Below are positions 1 through 10,156 of a stretch of 10,156 nucleotides of DNA, one piece after another. This DNA is from a virus (Duplodnaviria > Heunggongvirae > Uroviricota > Caudoviricetes), in IMG/VR virus record IMGVR_UViG_2565956614_000006. One strand, written 5' to 3'. Position 1 is the first letter of the stretch. Every line of letters begins with the position of its first letter. The translations under genes and the position numbers were made by a program. The notes under the pieces are model-generated. The model was not told where the DNA came from and did no database searches. It saw nothing but the letters and a program-made list of their open reading frames with translations.

Positions 1-672
<672 letters not shown>

Positions 673-923
673 GGTAATATTAAATCGGAACATTTACATC
701 GCGGAATGTAAAATTTAAATAAAAAGGACTCTTCCATGAGCCAAAATTCCTGAAATCTTAAGGGTAAGATAAAAGGTCTTAATCAGAATGACACGTTATT
801 ATTAATAAATAAAGCTATTCTTTCATTGCTGTGTTTTTCTTTACAAAAGTAATCCTTGCTATGGGTGGTTAATCATGCGTTAATGGTGTTCTGGTTTGTT
901 ACAAATTTATCTGAAGCAGTCAT

Positions 924-932
924 TGTTATAAT
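924..932 (+). promoter_or_regulatory. Candidate extended -10 promoter element (TGtTATAAT) for the cold-shock gene
   Basis: Sequence tgttataat at 924-932 matches TGnTATAAT; lies about 100 nt upstream of the csp start inside a long AT-rich leader, as expected for cspA-family genes. No convincing -35 found. Confidence 0.25.
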
Positions 933-1035
933 TTTATTATTTGTACCTCTTGAGATTTCCTTGTTGGTTTTTCTCTCTGATATTTTTTTTCGGACCATTC
1001 TGCCCAAGGGCTAATTTCTTCAAAAGGTAATAATT

Positions 1036-1248
1036 ATGTCTAACAAAATGACTGGTTTAGTGAAATGGTTTAACCCTGAAAAAGGTTTTGGTTTCATCAC
1101 GCCGAAAGATGGCAGCAAAGATGTGTTTGTCCATTTCTCAGCAATTCAGAGCAACGATTTCAAAACATTAACTGAGAATCAGGAAGTTGAATTTGGTATT
1201 GAGAACGGACCTAAAGGTCCTGCCGCTGTTCATGTAGTGGCGCTTTGA
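1036..1248 (+). CDS. cspI: Cold-shock protein, CspA family (CspI-like)
   Basis: 70-aa [45 protein letters not shown]... with RNP1-like KGFGFI and RNP2-like VFVHF motifs of the cold-shock domain; matches my recollection of E. coli CspI; AGG-containing RBS 8 nt upstream; long AT-rich 5' leader. Confidence 0.88.
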
Positions 1249-1447
1249 GGTAGACAATATTACAAACCATATTCACTTTAGATGCCCGTGTTGTCATGGT
1301 TCCCAGTATAGAACATCATCTTTTGATGTTTCTGACATGAATCCTTTCGGGGCAAAATGTATCTTTTGTAAATCAATGATGATTACATTTGATAATATTT
1401 CACAATACTTAAATGCCAGCCGTCTGTCGTTGGATTTAAAAAAGTGA
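1238..1447 (+). CDS. Small zinc-ribbon-like ORF (CPCC...CIFC) with no canonical start codon; possible non-ATG start or recently decayed gene
   Basis: Frame open from 1238 to TGA 1445-1447; translation ...[57 protein letters not shown] has two Cys pairs spaced as in a zinc ribbon. Only in-frame ATG is at 1337, which would split the motif. A strong intrinsic terminator follows 6 nt after the stop. Confidence 0.35.
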
Positions 1448-1452
1448 AAATG

Positions 1453-1476
1453 AAGGCTCCTTCGGGAGCTTTTTTG
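1453..1476 (+). terminator. Rho-independent terminator (GC stem, UUCG tetraloop, T-run)
   Basis: aaggctcc-ttcg-ggagcttt then a run of T's: stem of up to 8 bp, TTCG loop, six T's. Sits just downstream of the csp gene and the zinc-ribbon ORF. Confidence 0.65.
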
Positions 1477-1519
1477 CTTGGTATCTATTCGATGGATACT
1501 CACATACTACGGTAACATC

Positions 1520-1750
1520 ATGAAAAAAATCATAGTTTTTTTTAACTCTGAACCAGCAGTGGTAGTGCCAGCGATGACTGGAGTTAACACCATCATGCGT
1601 GAATATCCAAATGGCGAAAAAACACACCTTACTGTAATGGCCGCAGGGTTTCCATCTCTGACCGGAGATCATAAAGTCATTTATGTAGCCGCGGATCGAC
1701 ATGTTACTTCAGAAGAAATTCTGGAAGCAGCAATAAGGCTCTGGAGTTGA
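1520..1750 (+). CDS. Hypothetical small protein (76 aa from ATG 1520; possible YnfN-like prophage protein)
   Basis: Open frame 1478-1750; plausible starts at 1520 (MKKIIVFF...), 1574 or 1595 (MREYPNGEKTHL..., 51 aa). No strong RBS at any of them. Position between the csp gene and the gns gene parallels the Qin prophage cspI-ynfN-gnsB arrangement (recalled). Confidence 0.45.
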   Translation: MKKIIVFFNSEPAVVVPAMTGVNTIMREYPNGEKTHLTVMAAGFPSLTGDHKVIYVAADRHVTSEEILEAAIRLWS

Positions 1751-1921
1751 TTTGATGCTATTGTATTGATAATTCAGGAAAATTCTCTTTGTCTGTTTGT
1801 GTAAAATTTAGACTATCGTATGTTGATTATTGCGATGTTTCATCTTATCTTTTACACGTTTGCACCATATAATCGACTTACTGTGTAACTGGAAAGTCAT
1901 AACAGACTAAAAGAGGAAATG

Positions 1922-2095
1922 ATGAATATTGAAAACTTAAAAACAAAAGCAGAAGCAGATATTTCTGAATATATAACAAAAAAAATTATTGAACTTAAGA
2001 AAAAGACCGGGAAAGAAGTTACCAGTATTCAGTTTACCGCACGGGAAAAAATGACGGGTCTTGAAAGCTATGATGTCAAGATTAATTTAATCTGA
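1922..2095 (+). CDS. gnsB: GnsA/GnsB-family small protein
   Basis: 57-aa ORF MNIENLKTKAEADISEYITKKIIELKKKTGKEVTSIQFTAREKMTGLESYDVKINLI; the FTAREKMTGLESYDVKI block matches my recollection of E. coli GnsA/GnsB; RBS AAGAGGA at 1911-1917. Shorter than the supplied ORF-track cutoff. gnsB rather than gnsA is chosen from synteny only. Confidence 0.8.
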   Translation: MNIENLKTKAEADISEYITKKIIELKKKTGKEVTSIQFTAREKMTGLESYDVKINLI

Positions 2096-2124
2096 TGTAT
2101 TCAATAATAAAATTTATCCATAAA

Positions 2125-2146
2125 CCTCGTTTTTACGGGGTTTTGT
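2125..2146 (+). terminator. Weak candidate intrinsic terminator downstream of the gns gene
   Basis: cctcg-ttttta-cgggg (5-bp stem with one G-U pair) followed by tttt; about 30 nt after the stop. Confidence 0.25.
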
Positions 2147-2209
2147 TATATTTGAATGGTTCCGAATATCTAAATCACAATTGTTGATGGTTTTTATTAA
2201 ACCAATGCA

Positions 2210-2238
2210 GTCCGGCTCAGGAGTGAGAGAAGCCGGAC
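2210..2238 (-). terminator. GC-rich hairpin just 3' of the minus-strand DUF1398 gene; candidate terminator
   Basis: Perfect 8-bp inverted repeat gtccggct / agccggac with a 13-nt loop, 9 nt beyond the stop of the minus-strand gene; flanking sequence only moderately T-rich. Confidence 0.35.
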
Positions 2239-2246
2239 GTTATGGT

Positions 2247-2657
2247 TTAGCGTGGTAAGATCTGTGTAGTTTTCTGGATGCTTTCAGTAAATAGTAATGA
2301 GTTATCAAAGGCATAGTAATATCTTTGGTGTTCCTGGATATTTGTAACCCATCGGAAAACTCCTGCTTTAGCAAGATTTTCCCTGTATTGTTGAAATGTG
2401 ATTTCTTTTGATTTCAACTTATTATAGGAGGTCTCTATAAGATGTTTGTTTCTGGAGAATTTAACATTTACAACCTTTTTGAGTCCTTTTACTAACACTA
2501 TGTTGTCGTTTTCTAACACAATGTGAATATTATCTGTGGCTAAATAGTAAATATAAAGTGAGATATTGTGACGTTTTAGCTCAGAATAAAATAATTCACA
2601 GTTTAAATCTTTACGCACTTGATCGAATATTTCTTTAAAAATGGCAGCCTGAGCCAT
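2247..2657 (-). CDS. ydfO: DUF1398-family prophage protein (YdfO/YbcV-like)
   Basis: 136-aa ORF from the second ATG ([30 protein letters not shown]...), which has a GGAAGG RBS 7 nt upstream; the track ORF begins 5 codons earlier (2672) without an RBS. Resembles my recollection of E. coli YbcV/YdfO; ydfO chosen from Qin-like synteny; transcribed opposite to neighbours. Confidence 0.75.
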
Positions 2658-2957
2658 TGGTAAACCTTCCATGTGATACGATGGCGCGTAGTTTGCATTA
2701 TCGTGTTTATTGTTTCAATCTGGTCTGACCTCTTTGTGTTTTGTTGATGATTTATGTCAAATATTAAGCCTGTTTTTAATGAATAGTGTTGATTGCGTAA
2801 CAAAATTGAGCCTTGCTGGCATCCAGGAGGGATATGCAACCGACAGATGTATGTAAGGTCGATGTACTCAAACTTTCATACTTTTCCTCTTTTATGCAGT
2901 AAGATTTGAAGTAATATTTTAACCGCTAGATGACGAGCAAACGCATGGAGCGACAAA

Positions 2958-3164
2958 ATGAATAAAGAACAATCTGCTGATGAACTCTCGTTGGATCTGA
3001 TTCGTGTAAAAAATATGCTTAATAGCACCATTTCTATGAGTTACCCGGATGTTGTAATTGCATGTATAGAACATCAGGTGTCTCTGGAAGCATTCAGGGC
3101 AATTGAGGCAGCGTTGGTGAAGCACGATAAGAATTCGAAGGATTATTCCCTGGTGGTTGACTGA
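2958..3164 (+). CDS. Hypothetical small protein (68 aa), occupying the position of ynfO/ylcI-type morons upstream of terminase
   Basis: [71 protein letters not shown] with GGAG RBS 7 nt upstream of the ATG; no recognisable motif. Confidence 0.5.
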
Positions 3165-3184
3165 GCACCATAACTGCTAATCAT

Positions 3185-3352
3185 TCAAACTATTTCACCT
3201 GTGACAGAGTCAATATCGCATTCTGTCACTGTCAGGCTAATACAGAGCTGCAATTCAACTACTGCAATGTCCTCGTAATTAGGTGAATTTACAATATCGT
3301 CCTGTTCGGATGCCGGCTGCATTGCTGAAGATGAGGCATTTATGGTTCGCAT
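3185..3352 (-). CDS. Possible small acidic protein (55 aa), minus strand; speculative
   Basis: ATG at 3352 (minus) preceded by a GAGGGG RBS-like sequence 5 nt upstream; translation MRTINASSSAMQPASEQDDIVNSPNYEDIAVVELQLCISLTVTECDIDSVTGEIV; not in the ORF track (below length cutoff); overlaps a palindromic element. Confidence 0.2.
   Translation of the reverse strand: MRTINASSSAMQPASEQDDIVNSPNYEDIAVVELQLCISLTVTECDIDSVTGEIV
3193..3201. repeat. First copy of a thrice-repeated 9-mer TTTCACCTG
   Basis: Exact 9-mer also at 3635-3643 and 3712-3720; this copy abuts the palindrome gtgacaga...tctgtcac (3201-3229). Confidence 0.6.
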
Positions 3353-3488
3353 ATTTTCCCCTCATGCTCGTCAGTCCTGTGCGTAGGAAGAAACAGGACA
3401 CTCACACTAATTTGTGTGGGCATGCTGTGATGTCCTTCTGAATTATTCCTATGCCATTATGTAAAGCGCTGTATCAGATGCTCGTCAC

Positions 3489-3511
3489 GGCTGTCAGGCT
3501 GTCAGGCTGTC
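3489..3511. repeat. Tandem octamer repeat (GGCTGTCA, nearly 3 copies) immediately upstream of the cos-like site
   Basis: ggctgtca ggctgtca ggctgtc read directly; related CTGTCA(GG) motifs recur at 3223-3236 and 3662-3667. Confidence 0.6.
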
Positions 3512-3536
3512 GGGTCCTCCCGGTGGGGGCCCCTGC

Positions 3537-3557
3537 CACGGGGCGGGAGCGTCGCGG
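3537..3557. other. cos-like site: putative cosN (cohesive-end site) of the prophage
   Basis: acgGGGCGGGAGCGTcgcgg resembles phage lambda cosN acgGGGCGGCGACCTcgcgg (recalled lambda left end GGGCGGCGACCTCGCGGG): identical flanks and first 6 nt of the 12-mer; lies about 180 bp upstream of the small terminase start in a GC-rich block. Confidence 0.5.
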
Positions 3558-3633
3558 AAAAAGGCTAGTTTTTGCATTTCCATGGCGGCGGCAGCATGTT
3601 TGGTAATTTATTGATAATTAAAAGTTATTTCTC

Positions 3634-3720
3634 TTTTCACCTGTACAATATTTTTTTCTCCCTGTCATTAGACCAGTTTGCAATTAATTGAAATATATAA
3701 ATAAACATGATTTTCACCTG
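3634..3720. promoter_or_regulatory. Two direct copies of TTTTCACCTG spaced 77 bp apart between cosN-like site and terminase start; candidate cosB-type terminase or IHF binding region
   Basis: ttttcacctg at 3634-3643 and 3711-3720 in AT-rich DNA; the second copy overlaps the first ATG of the track ORF, arguing for a downstream start of the small terminase. Confidence 0.4.
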
Positions 3721-3736
3721 CCAGATGGAGTTGCTT

Positions 3737-4264
3737 ATGTCAAATGTGAGCGGGATCGGTGATGCTTATTACTGGAGTGTTTTTAAAATCGCTGAGGCCT
3801 TTGGGCTTCACCGGGACACAGTAAAAAAACGGCTCCTCGCGGCCAACACTCCTGTGGCTGCGACTGTCAGGGGGAACCCCGTTTACGCCCTGCAGCATGT
3901 CGGGCCAGCCCTGTTTAGTGTGAAGCATGAGGCAGCAGACTCTGTTCATGATCCATCCCGTATGGAGCCGAAAGAGAGAAAGGACTGGTACCAGTCTGAA
4001 AATGAAAGGATCAAGCTGGAAAAGGAGCAGCGAAAACTCATCCCCGTTGATGAAGTAGTCATCGTCTATTCGTCCATGAGAAAGGCTGTCGTCCAGGTTC
4101 TGGAGACAATTCCGGATGTTCTTGAACGCGATTGCGCCCTGACTCCTCAGGCCGTCGGCGTTGTACAGCAGGCCATTGATGACCTGCGATACACTCTTCA
4201 GGAAAAATCCTACGAGGCTTGTGCTGCTGAATTAATTCCTGATGAGGAAGGAGAGAGTCTCTAG
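3737..4264 (+). CDS. Terminase small subunit (DNA-recognition subunit; not Nu1-like in sequence)
   Basis: Immediately upstream of and coupled to the large terminase; N-terminal HTH-like segment (YYWSVFKIAEAFGLHRDTVKKRL); acidic C-terminus. Start at 3737 preferred (GGAG RBS 6 nt upstream); alternatives 3707 and 3725. Located downstream of the cos-like site. Confidence 0.65.
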   Translation: MSNVSGIGDAYYWSVFKIAEAFGLHRDTVKKRLLAANTPVAATVRGNPVYALQHVGPALFSVKHEAADSVHDPSRMEPKERKDWYQSENERIKLEKEQRKLIPVDEVVIVYSSMRKAVVQVLETIPDVLERDCALTPQAVGVVQQAIDDLRYTLQEKSYEACAAELIPDEEGESL

Positions 4265-4272
4265 GAGGAATA

Positions 4273-6372
4273 ATGGGTTTTTCATCAGCCCGAAATTTGG
4301 GAAGGGACATATCGGCAGGATTTTCCCCACCACGTCGCATGCCGATTTCGGAGGCTGTTAAAAAATTCATGCGTGTTCCCAAGGGGGCTGGTAACTCGGT
4401 GCCATGGGATCCTGAACTGACACCCTACATCATTGAGCCCATGAACTGCCTGGCATCGCGTGAATACGATGCGGTGATTTTTGTTGGTCCTGCGCGAACA
4501 GGGAAGACCATTGGTCTGATCGATGGATGGATTGTCTATACCATCGTTTGCGATCCTTCGGACATGCTCGTTGTGCAGATGACCGAAGATAAGGCCCGCG
4601 AGCATTCTAAAAAGCGCCTCGACAGAACGTTCAGAAGCAGTGCGGCGGTAAAGAAAAGAATGAGTCCACGTCGTAACGACAATAATGTCCATGATAAGAC
4701 GTTCAGGGATGGCTCGTTCCTTAAAATTGGTTGGCCCTCGGTCAACATTATGTCGTCGTCGGATTACCGGTTTGTCGCCTTAACCGATTACGACCGTTTT
4801 CCGGAGAATATCGACAGCGAGGGTGATGGTTTCTCCCTGGCCTCAAAACGTACCACCACATTTATGTCCGCCGGGATGACTCTGGTGGAGAGCTCGCCGG
4901 GACGTGACATCTGCGACAGCAAATGGCGACGTAAGTCGCCTCATGAAGCGCCACCGACGACTGGTATTCTTTCCCTTTACAATCGTGGTGACCGCCGCCG
5001 CTGGTACTGGTCATGTCCGCACTGCGGTGAATATTTTCAGCCAGCCATGGATGCCATGACCGGCTACCGTAATGAACCGGATCCCTTTAAAGCCAGTGAG
5101 GCGGCGTATCTACTTTGCCCGCACTGCAGCGGCATTATCACTGCGGAGAAAAAGCGTGAGCTCAATAGTGCAGGAGTCTGGTTGCGTGAAGGTCAGGTCA
5201 TTGATCGTAACGGCAACGTTTCCGGTGAACCGCGCCGCTCCCGTATCGCCAGTTTCTGGATGGAAGGGCCAGCTGCTGCGTATCAGACCTGGGCGCAACT
5301 GGTTTACAAATTACTGACTGCAGAACAGGAGTATGAAGCGACAGGAAGCGAAGAAACACTCAGGGCGGTTATCAACACCGACTGGGGATTGCCTTATCTT
5401 CCTCGTGCCAGCATGGAGCAACGAAAAAGTGAACTGCTTGAGCAGCGGGCAGAGCCAGTTCCTTCCCGCAGTGTGCCGGATGGCGTTAATTTCCTTGTGG
5501 CGACAGTGGATGTGCAGGCGGGACGTCATCGCCGTTTTGTGGTTCAGGTAACGGGCTATGGCAGTCGTGGCGAACGCTGGATTATTGATCGTTACAACAT
5601 CACGCAGTCATTGCGCAGTGACTGCGACGGGGAGAGCCAGCGAATTGATCCGGCCAGCTATCCGGAAGACTGGGATGTCCTGCTGACGGATGTTTTTCAT
5701 AAAAGCTGGCCGCTGGCCTCCGATCCTTCTCAACAAATGCGACTGATGGCAATGGCGGTGGACTCCGGCGGTGAAGACGGGGTCACTGATAATGCCTATA
5801 AATTCTGGCGTCGTTGCCGTCGTGATGGCCTTGGTAAACGTATTTACCTGTTTAAGGGTGACAGCATCCGGCGCGCAAAACTGATCAGCCGTACATTCCC
5901 TGATAACACCGGACGAACGGGCCGCCGGGCGCAGGCCGCAGGTGATGTGCCGCTCTGGCTTCTTCAGACGGATGCCCTGAAAGACCGGGTGAATAACGCG
6001 TTATGGCGTGACTCGCCAGGTCCAGGCTATGTGCATTTCCCTGACTGGCTGGGGAGCTGGTTTTACGACGAACTGACGTATGAAGAGCGGAGCAGTGACG
6101 GGAAATGGAGTAAGCCGGGTCGCGGTGCCAACGAAGCTTTTGACCTGATGGTGTATGCCGAGGCTCTGGTCATTCTGCATGGATACGAAAAGATCCGCTG
6201 GCCGGATGCACCGGAGTGGGCGAGCCGGGAAACCTGGCTGGAGTGTGTCCAGGACAGTACCGAACCGTCATCCTCACCGGAACCGGTATCCACGCCTGTT
6301 AAAAAACAAAAACGGAAGAAAACAGTAACTGACGATGTTAACCCCTGGCTGACTTCCGGAGGATGGTTATGA
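4273..6372 (+). CDS. Terminase large subunit, lambda GpA family
   Basis: 699-aa ORF with AGGAGG RBS; Walker A-like VGPARTGKT; CPHCGE and CPHC motifs like those I recall in lambda gpA; size and position match the GpA family. Confidence 0.88.
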   Translation: MGFSSARNLGRDISAGFSPPRRMPISEAVKKFMRVPKGAGNSVPWDPELTPYIIEPMNCLASREYDAVIFVGPARTGKTIGLIDGWIVYTIVCDPSDMLVVQMTEDKAREHSKKRLDRTFRSSAAVKKRMSPRRNDNNVHDKTFRDGSFLKIGWPSVNIMSSSDYRFVALTDYDRFPENIDSEGDGFSLASKRTTTFMSAGMTLVESSPGRDICDSKWRRKSPHEAPPTTGILSLYNRGDRRRWYWSCPHCGEYFQPAMDAMTGYRNEPDPFKASEAAYLLCPHCSGIITAEKKRELNSAGVWLREGQVIDRNGNVSGEPRRSRIASFWMEGPAAAYQTWAQLVYKLLTAEQEYEATGSEETLRAVINTDWGLPYLPRASMEQRKSELLEQRAEPVPSRSVPDGVNFLVATVDVQAGRHRRFVVQVTGYGSRGERWIIDRYNITQSLRSDCDGESQRIDPASYPEDWDVLLTDVFHKSWPLASDPSQQMRLMAMAVDSGGEDGVTDNAYKFWRRCRRDGLGKRIYLFKGDSIRRAKLISRTFPDNTGRTGRRAQAAGDVPLWLLQTDALKDRVNNALWRDSPGPGYVHFPDWLGSWFYDELTYEERSSDGKWSKPGRGANEAFDLMVYAEALVILHGYEKIRWPDAPEWASRETWLECVQDSTEPSSSPEPVSTPVKKQKRKKTVTDDVNPWLTSGGWL

Positions 6373-6581
6373 ACCAGAATGATATCGAAGCCATGATTCA
6401 GCGTTATATGGAAGCTGAAATGGCGGTGCTGGACGGAAAATCCGTCACCTTTAATGGTCAGCAGATGACCATGGAAAACTTATCTGAGATCCGGCAGGGA
6501 CGGCAGGAGTGGGAGCGCCGCCTTGCGGCTCTGATTACACGACGACGGGGGCATCCCGGGTACCGGCTGGCGAGGTTCTGA
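6369..6581 (+). CDS. gpW-like head-tail joining / head completion protein
   Basis: 70-aa ORF, ATG overlapping the terminase stop (ATGA), GGAGGA RBS 6 nt upstream; size, position between terminase and portal, and C-terminal ...RRRGHPGYRLARF (compare lambda gpW ...RRRGPAGFYV, recalled) support gpW. Confidence 0.6.
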   Translation: MNQNDIEAMIQRYMEAEMAVLDGKSVTFNGQQMTMENLSEIRQGRQEWERRLAALITRRRGHPGYRLARF

Positions 6582-8089
6582 TGGCAATTCTTGATGATGT
6601 GATTGGCGTTTTTTCACCAGGATGGAAAGCGGCAAGGCTGCGTTCCCGTGCGGTGATCCAGGCTTATGAGGCCGTAAAAACGACGCGGACACACAAAGCC
6701 CGACGGGAGAACCGAACTGCCGACCAGTTAAGCCAGTACGGGGCCGTGTCGTTACGTGAGCAGGCCCGTTACCTTGATAACAACCACGATCTGGTTATTG
6801 GTGTATTTGACAAGCTGGAAGAACGGGTGGTGGGGAAAAACGGGATTATTGTCGAGCCACATCCGGTATTACGCAATGGGGCCATTGCCCGTGACCTGGC
6901 TGCGGAGATTCGCACCCGATGGAGTGAATGGTCTGTCAGCCCGGAAGTCACCGGGCAGTTTACCCGTCCGATGCTGGAACGTCTGATGCTTCGTACCTGG
7001 CTGCGCGATGGTGAGGTGTTTGCCCAGATGGTTTCCGGGCGCATAAACAGCCTGGCACCTTCTGCCGGTGTTCATTTCTGGCTGGAGGCGCTCGAGCCAG
7101 ACTTTATTCCCATGACCAGTGATGAGAGCAACAGGCTGAATCAGGGCGTGTTTGTTGATGACTGGGGGCGTCCCGAAAAATATCTGGTGTATAAAAGCCG
7201 TCCCGTATCCAGACGGCAGATGGAAACCAAAGAAGTTGATGCAGAGCGAATGCTGCATCTTAAATTTGTTCGCCGTCTGCACCAGATGCGCGGGACGTCT
7301 TTATTGTCCGGTGTGCTGATCCGCCTCAGTGCCCTGAAAGAATATGAAGATTCTGAGCTGACTGCAGCAAGGATCGCCGCTGCTCTGGGGATGTACATCC
7401 GGAAAGGCGACGGGCAGAGCTATGAACCGGATGGTAATGGCAGAAAGGAGAATGAACGTGAGCTTACCATTCAGCCGGGCATTATTTACGACGATCTGAA
7501 ACCCGGCGAAGAAATCGGAATGGTGAAGTCGGATCGCCCCAATCCTAACCTTGAAACTTTTCGTAATGGTCAGTTGCGTGCCGTGGCGGCGGGCAGTCGT
7601 CTGAGTTTTTCCAGTACAGCGCGCAACTATAACGGCACTTACAGCGCCCAGCGTCAGGAGCTGGTTGAATCTACTGATGGCTACCTGATCCTGCAGGACT
7701 GGTTTATTGGTGCCGTCACCCGCCCGATGTACCGTGCATGGCTGAAACAGGCTGTGGCATCCGGTGTTATCAGGCTACCCCGCGATCTTGACCGTTCTTC
7801 ACTGTATACCGCGGTGTATTCCGGACCAGTGATGCCGTGGATTGACCCTGTTAAGGAGGCTGAGGCCTGGAAAATCCAGATTCGTGGTGGAGCGGCGACA
7901 GAATCAGACTGGGTACGTGCTGGTGGTCGTAATCCGGATGATGTCAAACGTCGGCGCAAGGCCGAAATTGATGAAAACCGCAAGCTGGATCTGGTATTTG
8001 ATACCGATCCGGCCAGTGATAAAGGAGGCAGTAGTGCCGCAACGAAACGACAGGAGCCGCAGCACACCGACGACCAGTCCGAAGAATAA
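6581..8089 (+). CDS. Portal protein (lambda gpB-like family)
   Basis: 502-aa ORF from the ATG overlapping the gpW stop (TGATG); the track ORF extends 24 codons upstream to 6509 but this start is coupled. Size and position between gpW and the head protease fit a portal. Confidence 0.8.
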   Translation: MAILDDVIGVFSPGWKAARLRSRAVIQAYEAVKTTRTHKARRENRTADQLSQYGAVSLREQARYLDNNHDLVIGVFDKLEERVVGKNGIIVEPHPVLRNGAIARDLAAEIRTRWSEWSVSPEVTGQFTRPMLERLMLRTWLRDGEVFAQMVSGRINSLAPSAGVHFWLEALEPDFIPMTSDESNRLNQGVFVDDWGRPEKYLVYKSRPVSRRQMETKEVDAERMLHLKFVRRLHQMRGTSLLSGVLIRLSALKEYEDSELTAARIAAALGMYIRKGDGQSYEPDGNGRKENERELTIQPGIIYDDLKPGEEIGMVKSDRPNPNLETFRNGQLRAVAAGSRLSFSSTARNYNGTYSAQRQELVESTDGYLILQDWFIGAVTRPMYRAWLKQAVASGVIRLPRDLDRSSLYTAVYSGPVMPWIDPVKEAEAWKIQIRGGAATESDWVRAGGRNPDDVKRRRKAEIDENRKLDLVFDTDPASDKGGSSAATKRQEPQHTDDQSEE

Positions 8090-9803
8090 TTCCTGGTTCA
8101 GGATGCAGGCTGGTCACCAGAGTGACGCGGATATTTATATTTATGACGAGATTGGTTTCTGGGGTGTTACAGCGAAGCAGTTTATCAGTGATCTGAATGC
8201 ACTGGGCGATATCACCCACATTAATCTCCATATTAATTCACCGGGTGGCGATGTCTTTGAAGGCATCGCCATTTTTAATGCGCTGAAAACACATGGTGCG
8301 TCCATTACCGTTTATGTCGACGGTGTGGCGGCGTCAATGGCGTCGGTCATTGCGATGGTAGGAAACCCGGTCATTATGCCGGAAAACACCTTCATGATGA
8401 TTCATAAACCATTTGGCTTTACGGGCGGTGATGCGGAGGACATGCGCACCTATGCCGACCTGCTCGATAAAGTTGAGGCGGTTCTGTTACCCGCTTATGC
8501 ACAGAAAACCGGGAAAACCACCGATGAAATTGCTGCCATGCTGGCGGATGAGACCTGGATGTCCGGTGCCGAATGTCTGGCACATGGATTTGCTGATCAG
8601 GTAACGCCAGCCGTTAAGGCAATGGCATGTATTCAGTCAAAACGTACAGAGGAATTTAAAAAGATGCCGGAATCCATTCGAAACATGATTACTCCGCCAC
8701 GCAACAGTGCTCCACGCGTACAGGATAATGAACCTGAAGCCTCCCGGACGCCAGTGCAGGCAGCAGCACCCGTGGTGGATGAAAACAGCATCCGTGCGCA
8801 GGTACTGGCAGAGCAAAAAGCGCGTGTAAACGGTATTAATGACCTGTTTGCCATGTTTGGCGGGCGTTATCAGACGCTGCAGGCTCAGTGTCTTGCCGAT
8901 CCTGAATGTTCGCTGGAGCAGGCCCGTGAAAAGCTGTTGAACGAGATGGGGCGCGAGTCCACGCCATCCAATAAAAATACCCCGGCTCATATTTATGCCG
9001 GTAACGGTAATTTTGTGGGGGACGGGATCCGCCAGGCGCTGATGGCGCGTGCCGGATTTGAAAAAACCGAACGTGATAATGTTTACAACGGGATGACCCT
9101 GCGTGAATATGCCCGTATGTCACTAACTGAACGGGGTATTGGGGTTTCCGGTTATAACCCGATGCAGATGGTCGGTGCGGCGTTCACACACAGTACGTCT
9201 GACTTCGGTAATATTCTGCTGGATGTTGCGAACAAAGCCATTCTGCAGGGCTGGGAAGATGCCCCTGAAACCTATGAACAGTGGACGCGGAAAGGTCAGT
9301 TGTCTGATTTTAAAATTGCCCATCGTGTGGGTATGGGTGGCTTCAGTGCTCTGCGTCAGGTGCGTGAAGGGGCGGAATATAAATACGTCACCACCGGAGA
9401 TAAACAGGCCACTATTGCACTGGCGACCTATGGCGAGCTGTTCAGTATCACCCGTCAGGCCATTATCAATGATGATCTGAATATGCTGACCGATGTCCCG
9501 ATGAAACTGGGCCGTGCGGCGAAATCCACTATTGCCGATCTGGTTTATGCCATTCTGACGTCTAACCCGAAAATCTCCACAGATAATGTAAGTCTGTTCG
9601 ATAAAGCGAAACATGCAAACGTACTGGAGAGCGCAGCAATGGACGTGGCATCGCTGGATAAAGCCCGCCAGTTGATGCGCGTTCAGAAGGCGCTGGATTT
9701 AACGTGGGGTCACCTCAACAGGCAGGTATATCTGAACTTGTTTTACGTGCAGGTAATGGTAATCCGAAGGGGATTACTGGTGCTTTATGGCAGCGCACAT
9801 TGA
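8034..9803 (+). CDS. ClpP-like prohead protease fused to scaffold/major capsid protein; 3' end disrupted by a deletion junction
   Basis: ClpP (S14) signature blocks [10 protein letters not shown]...[31 protein letters not shown]; C-terminal two-thirds resembles an HK97-fold capsid domain. Preferred start GTG 8034 with AAGGAGG RBS 5 nt upstream (inside portal 3' end); alternative ATG 8103. The frame ends in an implausible tail (...[28 protein letters not shown]) while another frame continues as tail-fibre sequence. Confidence 0.8.
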
Positions 9804-10156
9804 CAGGGTTTACAAATTTTGCCTGGGTTAATACATCTGGTGATACTTACGATATTTACGTTGCAATCGGAAATTATGCGACTGGTGTAAATATTCAATG
9901 GGATTATACCAGTAATGCCAGCGTGACGATTCATACGTCACCAGCATATTCTGCTAATAAGCCGGAAGGGTTAACGGACGGTACAGTTTATTCACTCTAT
10001 ACGCCATCAGAGCAGTTTTATCCGCCTGGCGCACCAATCCCGTGGCCATCAGATACCGTTCCGTCTGGCTATGCCCTGATGCAGGGGCAGGCTTTTGACA
10101 AATCTGCATACCCGAAACTTGCAGCGGCTTATCCGTCAGGCGTGATCCCTGATATG
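9662..10156 (+). pseudogene. Side tail fibre (Stf-like) gene fragment: internal part, no start, continues beyond the window
   Basis: Frame open from 9662 to the window end with no start codon; translation ...[96 protein letters not shown] contains the conserved block I recognise from lambdoid side tail fibre proteins. Out of frame with the capsid gene. Confidence 0.7.

Follow-up and report, generated by a model that had tools for sequence, protein, structure and literature searches.

The accessory (moron) island of Qin/Tritos-type prophages of Escherichia coli comprises two unrelated modules

Between the lysis gene Rz and the cohesive end (cos) of phage lambda lies bor, the textbook example of a moron in this interval. 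The right end of lambda (bor, lambdap78, lambdap79) and that of DLP12 (borD, ybcV, ybcW) contain, in addition, a divergent gene pair. Another set of genes occurs in the Qin prophage of Escherichia coli K-12 (rzpQ-cspI-ynfQ-ynfR-ynfN-gnsB-ydfO) and in the plaque-forming phage Tritos (OV696610.1), which is prophage 3 of the adherent-invasive E. coli (AIEC) strain LF82 and whose morons have been defined by RNA-seq (PMC9928086). A paralogous layout is present in the E. coli core genome (cspG-ymcF-ymcE-gnsA). Here, we compare these systems with a stretch of 10,156 nt of caudoviricete DNA (IMG/VR record IMGVR_UViG_2565956614_000006; the window), which represents the late region of an E. coli prophage of the lambdoid type and carries an AT-rich island of small genes (1036-3164) between Rz/Rz1 and the cos site and terminase genes. 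The island is not new but is the already annotated accessory ("moron") island of Qin/Tritos-type lambdoid prophages, and it consists of two unrelated modules, namely a cold-shock cassette and a divergent pair of genes encoding a DUF1398 protein and a YbcW-like protein.

The composition and position of the island agree with the initial annotation, which had placed AT-rich accessory genes between the lysis cassette and the terminase. The G+C content is 0.356 for 673-3300 and 0.362 for 1036-3164, compared to 0.528 for 3737-10156, and ranges from 0.30 to 0.42 among the individual features between Rz (DUF2514) and the terminase genes. All six listed open reading frames (ORFs) are present, of which five are assignable to named or curated families and one to a phage family, but the 21-aa ynfR was overlooked. 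The implied novelty did not hold up, because every gene already has a name in K-12 and RefSeq. The chromosome of strain MB06234 (NZ_CM129882.1) shares 99.98% identity with window positions 1-5371, and RefSeq names the genes at a locus of 99.98% identity cspI, ymcF/ynfQ, ynfR, ynfN, gnsB, "DUF1398 family protein", and "hypothetical protein".

Among the described systems, Qin of K-12 has the same gene order and orientation and shares 96.8% nucleotide identity over positions 1-2735. Past this point, Qin continues with ynfO (DUF3950) and nohA, whereas the window continues with the YbcW-like gene and cos, followed by terminase and portal genes that are intact. Moreover, ynfN of Qin is frameshifted (51 aa), whereas that of the window is intact (76 aa), and the DUF1398 protein of the window is closer to YbcV than to YdfO of Qin. 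Tritos matches the window with its right end (1-3540; 99.86% identity) and its left end (3541-9688; 98.96%) and has the same island and cos position. The similarity to Tritos ends at 9688, inside a protease/capsid fusion gene; from 9689 on, the window is 100% identical to a deleted Qin-like prophage of strain MB06234, and judging from this alignment, the prophage of the window probably carries an internal deletion and is therefore defective. In the core genome, the paralogous locus consists of a csp gene, a gap of 10 nt, ymcF with an ATT start, a terminator hairpin crossed by an ORF, and a gns gene, with 73-74% nucleotide identity to the window over the csp/ymcF and gns segments. However, its middle gene product, YmcE, is unrelated to YnfN, and its gnsA has a GTG start and overlaps ymcE, whereas gnsB of the window starts 171 nt past ynfN and is preceded by its own conserved promoter-like block.

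The assumption that the genes form a single island is contradicted by the distribution of its parts. Lambda and DLP12 match the window solely at 2228-3310 (approximately 89.5-90% identity), which comprises the DUF1398 gene, the 68-aa YbcW-like gene, and a short stretch beyond; they possess bor where the phage of the window has a five-gene cold-shock cassette. Conversely, phages mEp460 and HannyBb carry the cold-shock cassette and the YbcW-like gene but lack the DUF1398 gene. The block csp-ymcF-ynfN-gnsB recurs in the same order in other enterobacterial prophages, where it is located between the lysis genes and two different types of terminase. The cassette (1036-2095) is present with at least 80% coverage in 2096 of 5426 complete E. 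coli genomes (approximately 39%), nearly always as a single copy; it occurs with at least 99% identity in 1503 records and survives in decayed prophages. The wider interval (600-3800) is matched in 3361 of the same genomes, with at least 80% of this span covered in 440.

Published RNA-seq data document the expression of the island in strain LF82; over 600-3800, the window and the Tritos prophage of this strain share 99.8% identity. We re-read the S4 Table of PMC9928086 by coordinates (window position x corresponds to LF82 position 1612297 - x); it reports log2(fpkm+5) values, based on fragments per kilobase per million mapped reads (fpkm), for five conditions. The values of cspI (9.0-12.7), gnsB (7.6-12.3), and the YbcW-like gene (4.7-10.0; up 4.9 log2 in macrophages vs. 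lysogeny broth) are high while Rz (2.9-4.5) and the small terminase gene (2.5-4.2) are at background, which indicates that the three genes are expressed from the repressed prophage, at levels hundreds of times higher than those of the silent genes for lysis and terminase. The same applies, weakly, to ynfN (4.8-8.4) but not to the DUF1398 gene (2.8-5.2), so that the independent expression suggested in the initial annotation is supported for cspI, gnsB, and the YbcW-like gene of the LF82 lysogen, with DUF1398 remaining near background. Expression of ynfN tracks that of cspI at a level about 3-6 log2 units lower, which fits a partial read-through of the terminator between them. The levels of gnsB vary independently of cspI and peak in a different condition, which fits the presence of its own promoter.

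In Table 1 and S1 Table of the same study (PMC9928086), gene labels and coordinates are out of register by one row (LF82_0907, LF82_2579, LF82_2580, LF82_3578). LF82_0907, labeled "YnfN, 27-fold", has the coordinates 1610202-1610375 (174 bp) and is gnsB; the row labeled "YbcV" is the 207-bp YbcW-like gene. The S4 Table labels most of the moron genes correctly and calls LF82_0907 GnsB.

In K-12, cspI, ynfQ, and ynfN respond together, being 6.5-, 5.9-, and 5.8-fold upregulated with AZT and showing 38-, 42-, and 51-fold dependence on SspA (PMC11228462). The profiles of cspI and ynfN are parallel in long-term stationary phase (PMC7406224), and cspI and ynfQ drop together in butanol (PMC11728337). 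A cspI deletion strain is outcompeted by the wild type in long-term stationary phase (PMC7406224). Transcription outside prophage induction and a deletion phenotype, the two lines of evidence by which the initial annotation had proposed to judge its accessory genes, are therefore both on record.

Apart from transcription from the repressed prophage, a further property by which morons are recognized is a base composition that deviates from that of the structural genes (0.36 vs. 0.53). Clear terminators are present after ynfQ and gnsB, whereas the promoters are putative and were assigned from conserved sequence blocks. The claim that the genes have their own terminators is correct in these two cases, but a scan for terminator-like sites combined with folding detected no terminator-like hairpin after cspI, ynfN, or the 68-aa gene. 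Dispensability for phage growth follows from comparison only: lambda lacks the cold-shock cassette, mEp460 and HannyBb lack the DUF1398 gene, and all are viable. The interpretation as a moron region is supported by composition, position, and the LF82 data, and the cold-shock cassette, expressed from the repressed prophage, most likely benefits the lysogen.

The first gene of the cassette, cspI (1036-1248, plus strand), encodes a cold-shock protein of the CspA family (PF00313, 1.6e-31, profile positions 1-65 of 66; RefSeq "cold shock protein CspI") that is 100% identical to CspI of K-12. The 5′ untranslated region and coding region (890-1275, plus strand) are predicted to form a cspA-type mRNA thermoregulator, based on a full-length match to Rfam RF01766 (model positions 1-428; 112.8 bits vs. 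a gathering score of 78; E = 3e-29); the terminator segment of the model itself is absent from the match. A putative promoter is located immediately upstream (856-884, plus strand), with a -35 element TTGCTA (856-861), a 17-nt spacer, and an extended -10 element TGcGTTAAT (876-884). The block is conserved in alignments with cspG of K-12, a csp gene of Salmonella, and a Citrobacter-type cassette, suggesting that transcription of cspI starts near 890, where the Rfam model begins. The possible cold-responsiveness of the island finds published support in the cold response of cspI (Wang 1999, as cited in PMC7406224) and in that of YnfR (PMC6001520).

The start codon of ynfQ (1259-1447, plus strand) is an ATT located 10 nt downstream of the cspI stop codon. 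Its 62-aa product, a predicted zinc-ribbon protein, is identical to YnfQ of K-12 and belongs to the YmcF family (PF23641, 6.9e-32, 109.9 bits, positions 1-62 of 62), with two Cys pairs (CPCC...CIFC); zinc binding is suggested by the CxxC...CxxC motif. The frame contains no ATG, GTG, or TTG before position 1337 (codon 27), and a start at 1337 would eliminate the first Cys pair. CPCC and CIFC are invariant or nearly so among 26 sequences of the family, and ymcF-like genes of about 20 genera share 17 invariant and 9 nearly invariant residues. A search of the YmcF profile against PDB sequences returned nothing but chance matches to Cys motifs and no related solved structure. Small zinc-binding proteins of another family, YnfU (PF23499), are repeatedly encoded next to csp genes in these prophages, for example at 2431-2604 and 5051-5215 of one compared locus, and K-12 likewise has ynfU beside cspB; YnfQ matches the YnfU-type NCBIfam model only weakly (0.0023). 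The "YnfQ" of PMC6001520 is a different gene, now named ynfT.

The unusual start codon is a conserved feature of the family. Among 80 species-representative ymcF-family loci, which are not phylogenetically independent, the gene starts with ATT in 60, ATC in 4, and ATG in 16 cases, and in 51 it is preceded by a csp stop codon at a distance of 9-10 nt. An ATT or ATC start is used in every one of the 50 loci that have an intact csp gene within 240 nt, whereas none of the 16 loci with an ATG start has an intact csp gene; of these, the loci of Klebsiella and Raoultella retain a decayed 3′ end of csp. The pairing of csp with a downstream ymcF also occurs outside of phages, in Salmonella and Dickeya. 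The conservation across Enterobacteriaceae of an ATT or ATC start of ymcF-family genes 9-10 nt past the csp stop codon is an addition made by this comparison, and from spacing and start codons alike, it would appear that translation of the zinc-ribbon protein is coupled to that of csp.

An intrinsic terminator ends the cspI-ynfQ unit (1453-1478, plus strand). It consists of the hairpin AAGGCTCC-TTCG-GGAGCTTT (1453-1472) and a T-run, with a folding energy of -14.9 kcal/mol including the flanks. The number of terminator-like sites (3 observed vs. 1.7 expected) is not significant by itself; support comes instead from conservation. Of 78 distinct loci, 52 have a hairpin with a T-run behind ymcF, mostly within about 15 nt of its stop codon. 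Since the sequences of the stem vary by genus, it is the structure and not the sequence that is retained, and this structurally conserved terminator after ymcF is likewise an addition of the present analysis.

The overlooked ynfR (1450-1515, plus strand; RefSeq "small protein YnfR") begins 2 nt past the ynfQ stop codon, spans the terminator hairpin, and stops 4 nt short of the ATG of ynfN. Its frame is not conserved outside the Qin-type loci of Escherichia, for instance not in the Citrobacter-type cassettes, and it is broken in one E. coli; a role as a conserved coupling or leader ORF was rejected on these grounds. Although SPA-tagged YnfR (YnfR-SPA) is strongly cold-induced in K-12 (PMC6001520), we treat ynfR as a lineage-specific frame and not as a conserved gene. 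Also ymcE of K-12 translates the hairpin after ymcF, in the same frame in which ynfR translates that after ynfQ (RLPRGAFF vs. KAPSGAFL), which casts doubt on the selection of YnfR, or of the N-terminus of YmcE, as a protein.

The next gene, ynfN (1520-1750, plus strand), encodes a protein of 76 aa, with a predicted fold of five strands and a C-terminal helix. This is the conserved form of YnfN, with 21 invariant residues that include the N-terminus. In K-12 MG1655, the run of eight T residues at 1537-1544 is shortened to seven, and the resulting frameshift explains the 51-aa annotation; the "51-aa YnfN" of K-12 is probably a truncated remnant that lacks the conserved first 25 residues. Of 60 homologs of YnfN, those recorded with an organism name all belong to Escherichia or Citrobacter. 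Translated matches to ynfN were found 3′ of ymcF in 31 of the 80 species loci, which adds Yokenella, Scandinavium, Raoultella, Klebsiella, and Trabulsiella. YnfN was also considered as a YmcE-type antitoxin, but there is no similarity between the two proteins and this candidate was rejected. On another enterobacterial contig with non-phage neighbors, a csp gene is flanked by two YnfN-like paralogs of 80 and 75 aa (3037-3279 and 4001-4228 of that contig), and an uncalled ymcF-like ORF with an ATT start lies between the csp gene and the downstream paralog.

The last gene of the cassette, gnsB (1922-2095, plus strand), encodes a 57-aa member of the GnsA/GnsB family (PF08178, 3.1e-35, 120.3 bits) that is 100% identical to GnsB of K-12 and matches the crystal structures of GnsA (4XO1 and 4XO2). 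A putative promoter (1823-1851, plus strand) consists of TTGATT, a 17-nt spacer, and TATCTT; both hexamers and their spacing are retained in the cassette of a different prophage type, whose YnfN is only 74-75% identical, which points to a promoter belonging to gnsB. An intrinsic terminator follows the gene (2122-2150, plus strand; hairpin 2122-2143 with a 9-bp stem and a T-run, -14.7 kcal/mol). Where gnsB and the DUF1398 gene converge, a G+C-rich hairpin (2209-2239; approximately -22 kcal/mol on either strand, with weak T-runs) may terminate transcription in both directions. Supplied on a plasmid, gnsB rescues relA fadR strains from their cold sensitivity, as does gnsA (bioRxiv 2024.03.27.586906, which also cites the earlier suppression of fabA6 and secG mutants via more unsaturated fatty acids); its mechanism is still stated as unknown (PMC10607373).

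The second module consists of the divergently oriented DUF1398 and YbcW-like genes. The DUF1398 gene (2247-2672, minus strand; PF07166, 2.2e-43, 147.5 bits) is homologous to ybcV, ydfO, and lambdap78 and shares 89.5% nucleotide identity with phage lambda. RefSeq places its start at 2657 (136 aa), whereas the ORF reaches 2672 (141 aa). The protein matches PDB entry 2HH8 (1.4e-69), the structure of YdfO, which has no assigned function. A role as a "head protein", the label given by PHROG, is implausible, since the gene lies on the opposite strand and viable phages lack it. The YbcW-like gene (2958-3164, plus strand; phrog_657, 5e-47) encodes a 68-aa protein homologous to lambdap79; a small helical bundle is predicted (predicted local distance difference test score, pLDDT, 78.9), with only generic structural matches. 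A search for representatives of the wider YbcW family yielded 165 matches, nearly all of them erroneous versions of the lambda gene that stem from sequencing controls; true divergent homologs numbered only two (approximately 40% and 54% identity).

The divergent promoter region of the pair contains a PdhR-box-like 17-mer, ATCTGGTCTGACCTCTT (2718-2734), which is identical to the 17-mer between ybcV and ybcW of DLP12. In DLP12, this 17-mer is a PdhR site identified by SELEX (systematic evolution of ligands by exponential enrichment), and both mRNAs are approximately 9-10-fold lower in a pdhR mutant (PMC7660256). E. coli or lambda-like sequences were also encountered under odd names (metagenome-assembled genomes of Veillonella parvula and Mucilaginibacter, a Chryseobacterium assembly, a Dovyalis caffra protein, and "Campylobacter phage CJLB-4"), probably as a result of contamination or mis-binning, and many ENA contigs of approximately 3.5 kb with a YbcW-like gene look like lambda control DNA.

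As a moron region that occupies the right end of a Qin/Tritos-type prophage, the island would operate as follows. Module 1 (approximately 700-2230) probably stems from a chromosomal csp-ymcF(-ynfN) operon of Enterobacteriaceae. The conserved sigma-70 promoter proposed above would yield a cspI mRNA whose cspA-type leader confers stability and translatability in the cold. The same mRNA would give rise to YnfQ, initiated at the ATT 10 nt past the cspI stop codon by translational coupling, and most transcripts would end at the terminator after ynfQ; read-through, suggested by the published expression values, would provide ynfR and ynfN at approximately one-tenth to one-twentieth of the cspI level. 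With its own promoter and terminator, gnsB would be expressed separately, and abundant GnsB would shift the membrane fatty acids toward unsaturated species, as published for overexpression. Module 2 (2228-3310), which lambda and DLP12 have in common, would contribute the divergent pair with its PdhR-box-like site. The cassette would most likely help the lysogen in long-term stationary phase and presumably also in the cold.

Several points weigh against this interpretation. Expression and phenotype data come from LF82 and K-12 and not from this exact sequence; the LF82 data were obtained at 37 C, so that cold induction of phage-borne ynfQ, ynfN, and gnsB is an extrapolation, and the phenotypes of gnsB are those of overexpression alone. 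The promoters were assigned by sequence conservation and not by mapped transcription starts. A strong terminator separates ynfQ from ynfN, and it is only correlated levels that suggest read-through rather than a separate promoter. The DUF1398 gene is barely transcribed in LF82, and since ynfN is frameshifted in K-12 and the DUF1398 gene is deleted in some phages, neither is indispensable.

A different possibility is that these are passenger genes of the late operon. They would be expressed chiefly in the lytic cycle, by Q-antiterminated read-through from pR', and would serve the phage rather than the lysogen, for example by ensuring that late mRNAs stay translatable and membranes stay fluid upon prophage induction in the cold. 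The genes of the cold-shock cassette are indeed co-oriented with the late genes and lie inside the late unit between Rz and cos, and the cassette is carried by the plaque-forming phages Tritos, mEp460, HannyBb, and 2H10. In LF82, however, the neighboring Rz and terminase genes do not rise above background, in contrast to the high expression of cspI, gnsB, and the YbcW-like gene, and the cassette is retained with at least 99% identity in prophages without structural genes, including Qin of K-12 and that of MB06234. We consider a mainly lytic role possible but doubtful; it does not exclude a benefit to the lysogen. The view that the small ORFs other than cspI are decaying or spurious frames without function is unlikely and probably applies to ynfR alone, which is unconserved outside Escherichia and broken in one E. 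coli. Although ynfN is frameshifted in K-12, the DUF1398 gene is deleted in mEp460 and HannyBb, and no biochemical function has been reported for the small ORFs (PMC11551758, which in 2024 listed ynfO, ydfO, ynfN, ynfR, and ynfQ as uncharacterized), such decay is at odds with the residues conserved among ymcF-like genes and in YnfN, with the confident predicted fold of YnfN and its linkage to csp-ymcF in several genera, with the reproducible phenotypes of GnsB overexpression, and with the strong transcription of YbcW and its conservation from lambda to the phage of the window.

The names "GnsA/GnsB toxin" and "addiction module toxin" in Pfam and RefSeq, together with the listing of ymcE-gnsA among type II toxin-antitoxin pairs (PMC8484670), would make gnsB the toxin of a prophage-stabilizing addiction module, with ynfN or another neighbor as the antitoxin. 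This is quite improbable, because YnfN does not resemble YmcE, and matches to YmcE occur only at core cspG-type loci and one Citrobacter locus; no YmcE homolog was found in the window or at Qin-type loci. Moreover, gnsB is separated from ynfN by 171 nt and apparently has its own promoter, healthy cultures of LF82 contain its mRNA as one of their most abundant prophage transcripts (with ynfN 16-60-fold lower), and plasmid-borne gnsB rescues growth instead of stopping it. It is harder still to picture the island as an anti-phage defense locus, which the weak PADLOC matches of CspI (CSD_V, 3e-15) and DUF1398 (REase_II, 4e-4, 17.9 bits) and the NCBIfam match of CspI to "retron Se72 effector" (50 bits, below the cut-off of 82) might indicate: CspI is 100% identical to the canonical protein of K-12 and scores far higher against the CspG, CspA, and CspE models, the four small proteins of unknown function have no PADLOC match, and a partner gene, such as one for a reverse transcriptase, a nuclease, or an ATPase, was not detected among the ORFs and their Pfam matches. 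All four explanations are weaker than that of a moron region benefiting the lysogen.

An extension of the lysogen-benefit interpretation, which we offer tentatively and regard as rather unlikely at present, is that csp, ymcF/ynfQ, and ynfN constitute a conserved three-part module for cold and stationary phase that lambdoid phages have made portable. Synthesis of the zinc-ribbon protein would be tied to that of Csp by termination-reinitiation at a near-cognate AUU or AUC, and the terminator would gate the third gene, possibly via antitermination by Csp, an activity for which Csp proteins are known. The small proteins would then act with or on the Csp RNA chaperone.

The island is bounded on the left by the last gene of the lysis cassette, rzpQ (175-672, plus strand), which encodes an Rz spanin (DUF2514; PF10721, 5.5e-39; so annotated by RefSeq at the locus with 99.98% identity) and contains the embedded rzoQ/Rz1 lipoprotein ORF (approximately 368-622, plus strand), as in rzpQ/rzoQ of K-12. 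The right boundary in virion DNA is the probable cohesive end (cosN; 3541-3552, plus strand; GGGCGGGAGCGT), placed at 3540|3541 because the Tritos record ends at window position 3540 and begins at 3541; we take its sequence, GGGCGGGAGCGT, to resemble the lambda end GGGCGGCGACCT. Three tandem 8-mers (GCTGTCAG, GCTGTCAG, GCTGTCGG) at 3490-3513, just upstream of GGGCGGGAGCGT, may represent a terminase recognition element, and an inverted repeat (GTGACAGA...TCTGTCAC) is present at about 3201-3229. A 55-aa ORF (3185-3352, minus strand) that is unannotated in RefSeq matches phrog_4035 over its full length (1.2e-41); a Pfam search returned no match, and it has no similarity to YlcI or YnfO, which occupy its position in DLP12 and Qin, respectively. 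Beyond cos follow the genes of the small terminase subunit (3737-4264, plus strand; DUF1441, NohA/NohD-like; PF07278, 1.9e-44; phrog_141; TRITO_1 of Tritos) and the large terminase subunit (4273-6372, plus strand), and then head-tail joining, portal, and protease/capsid genes.

Much of this was known: the island is annotated in K-12, occurs in approximately 39% of the complete E. coli genomes, and moron expression has been published for a nearly identical phage. The additions made here are modest and concern the start-codon and terminator pattern of ymcF, YnfN in its intact form, and a published table with shifted labels. YnfQ, YnfN, DUF1398, and YbcW are still without a biochemical function although they are common, conserved, and in some cases strongly expressed. 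Handles for experiments are provided by the link between the csp stop codon and a conserved AUU/AUC start, the terminator conserved behind ymcF, the association of ynfN with csp-ymcF in non-phage loci, and the intact 76-aa YnfN. If csp, ymcF, and ynfN did form a three-part module, they would expand one of the most thoroughly studied stress responses of bacteria by parts that have gone unrecognized.

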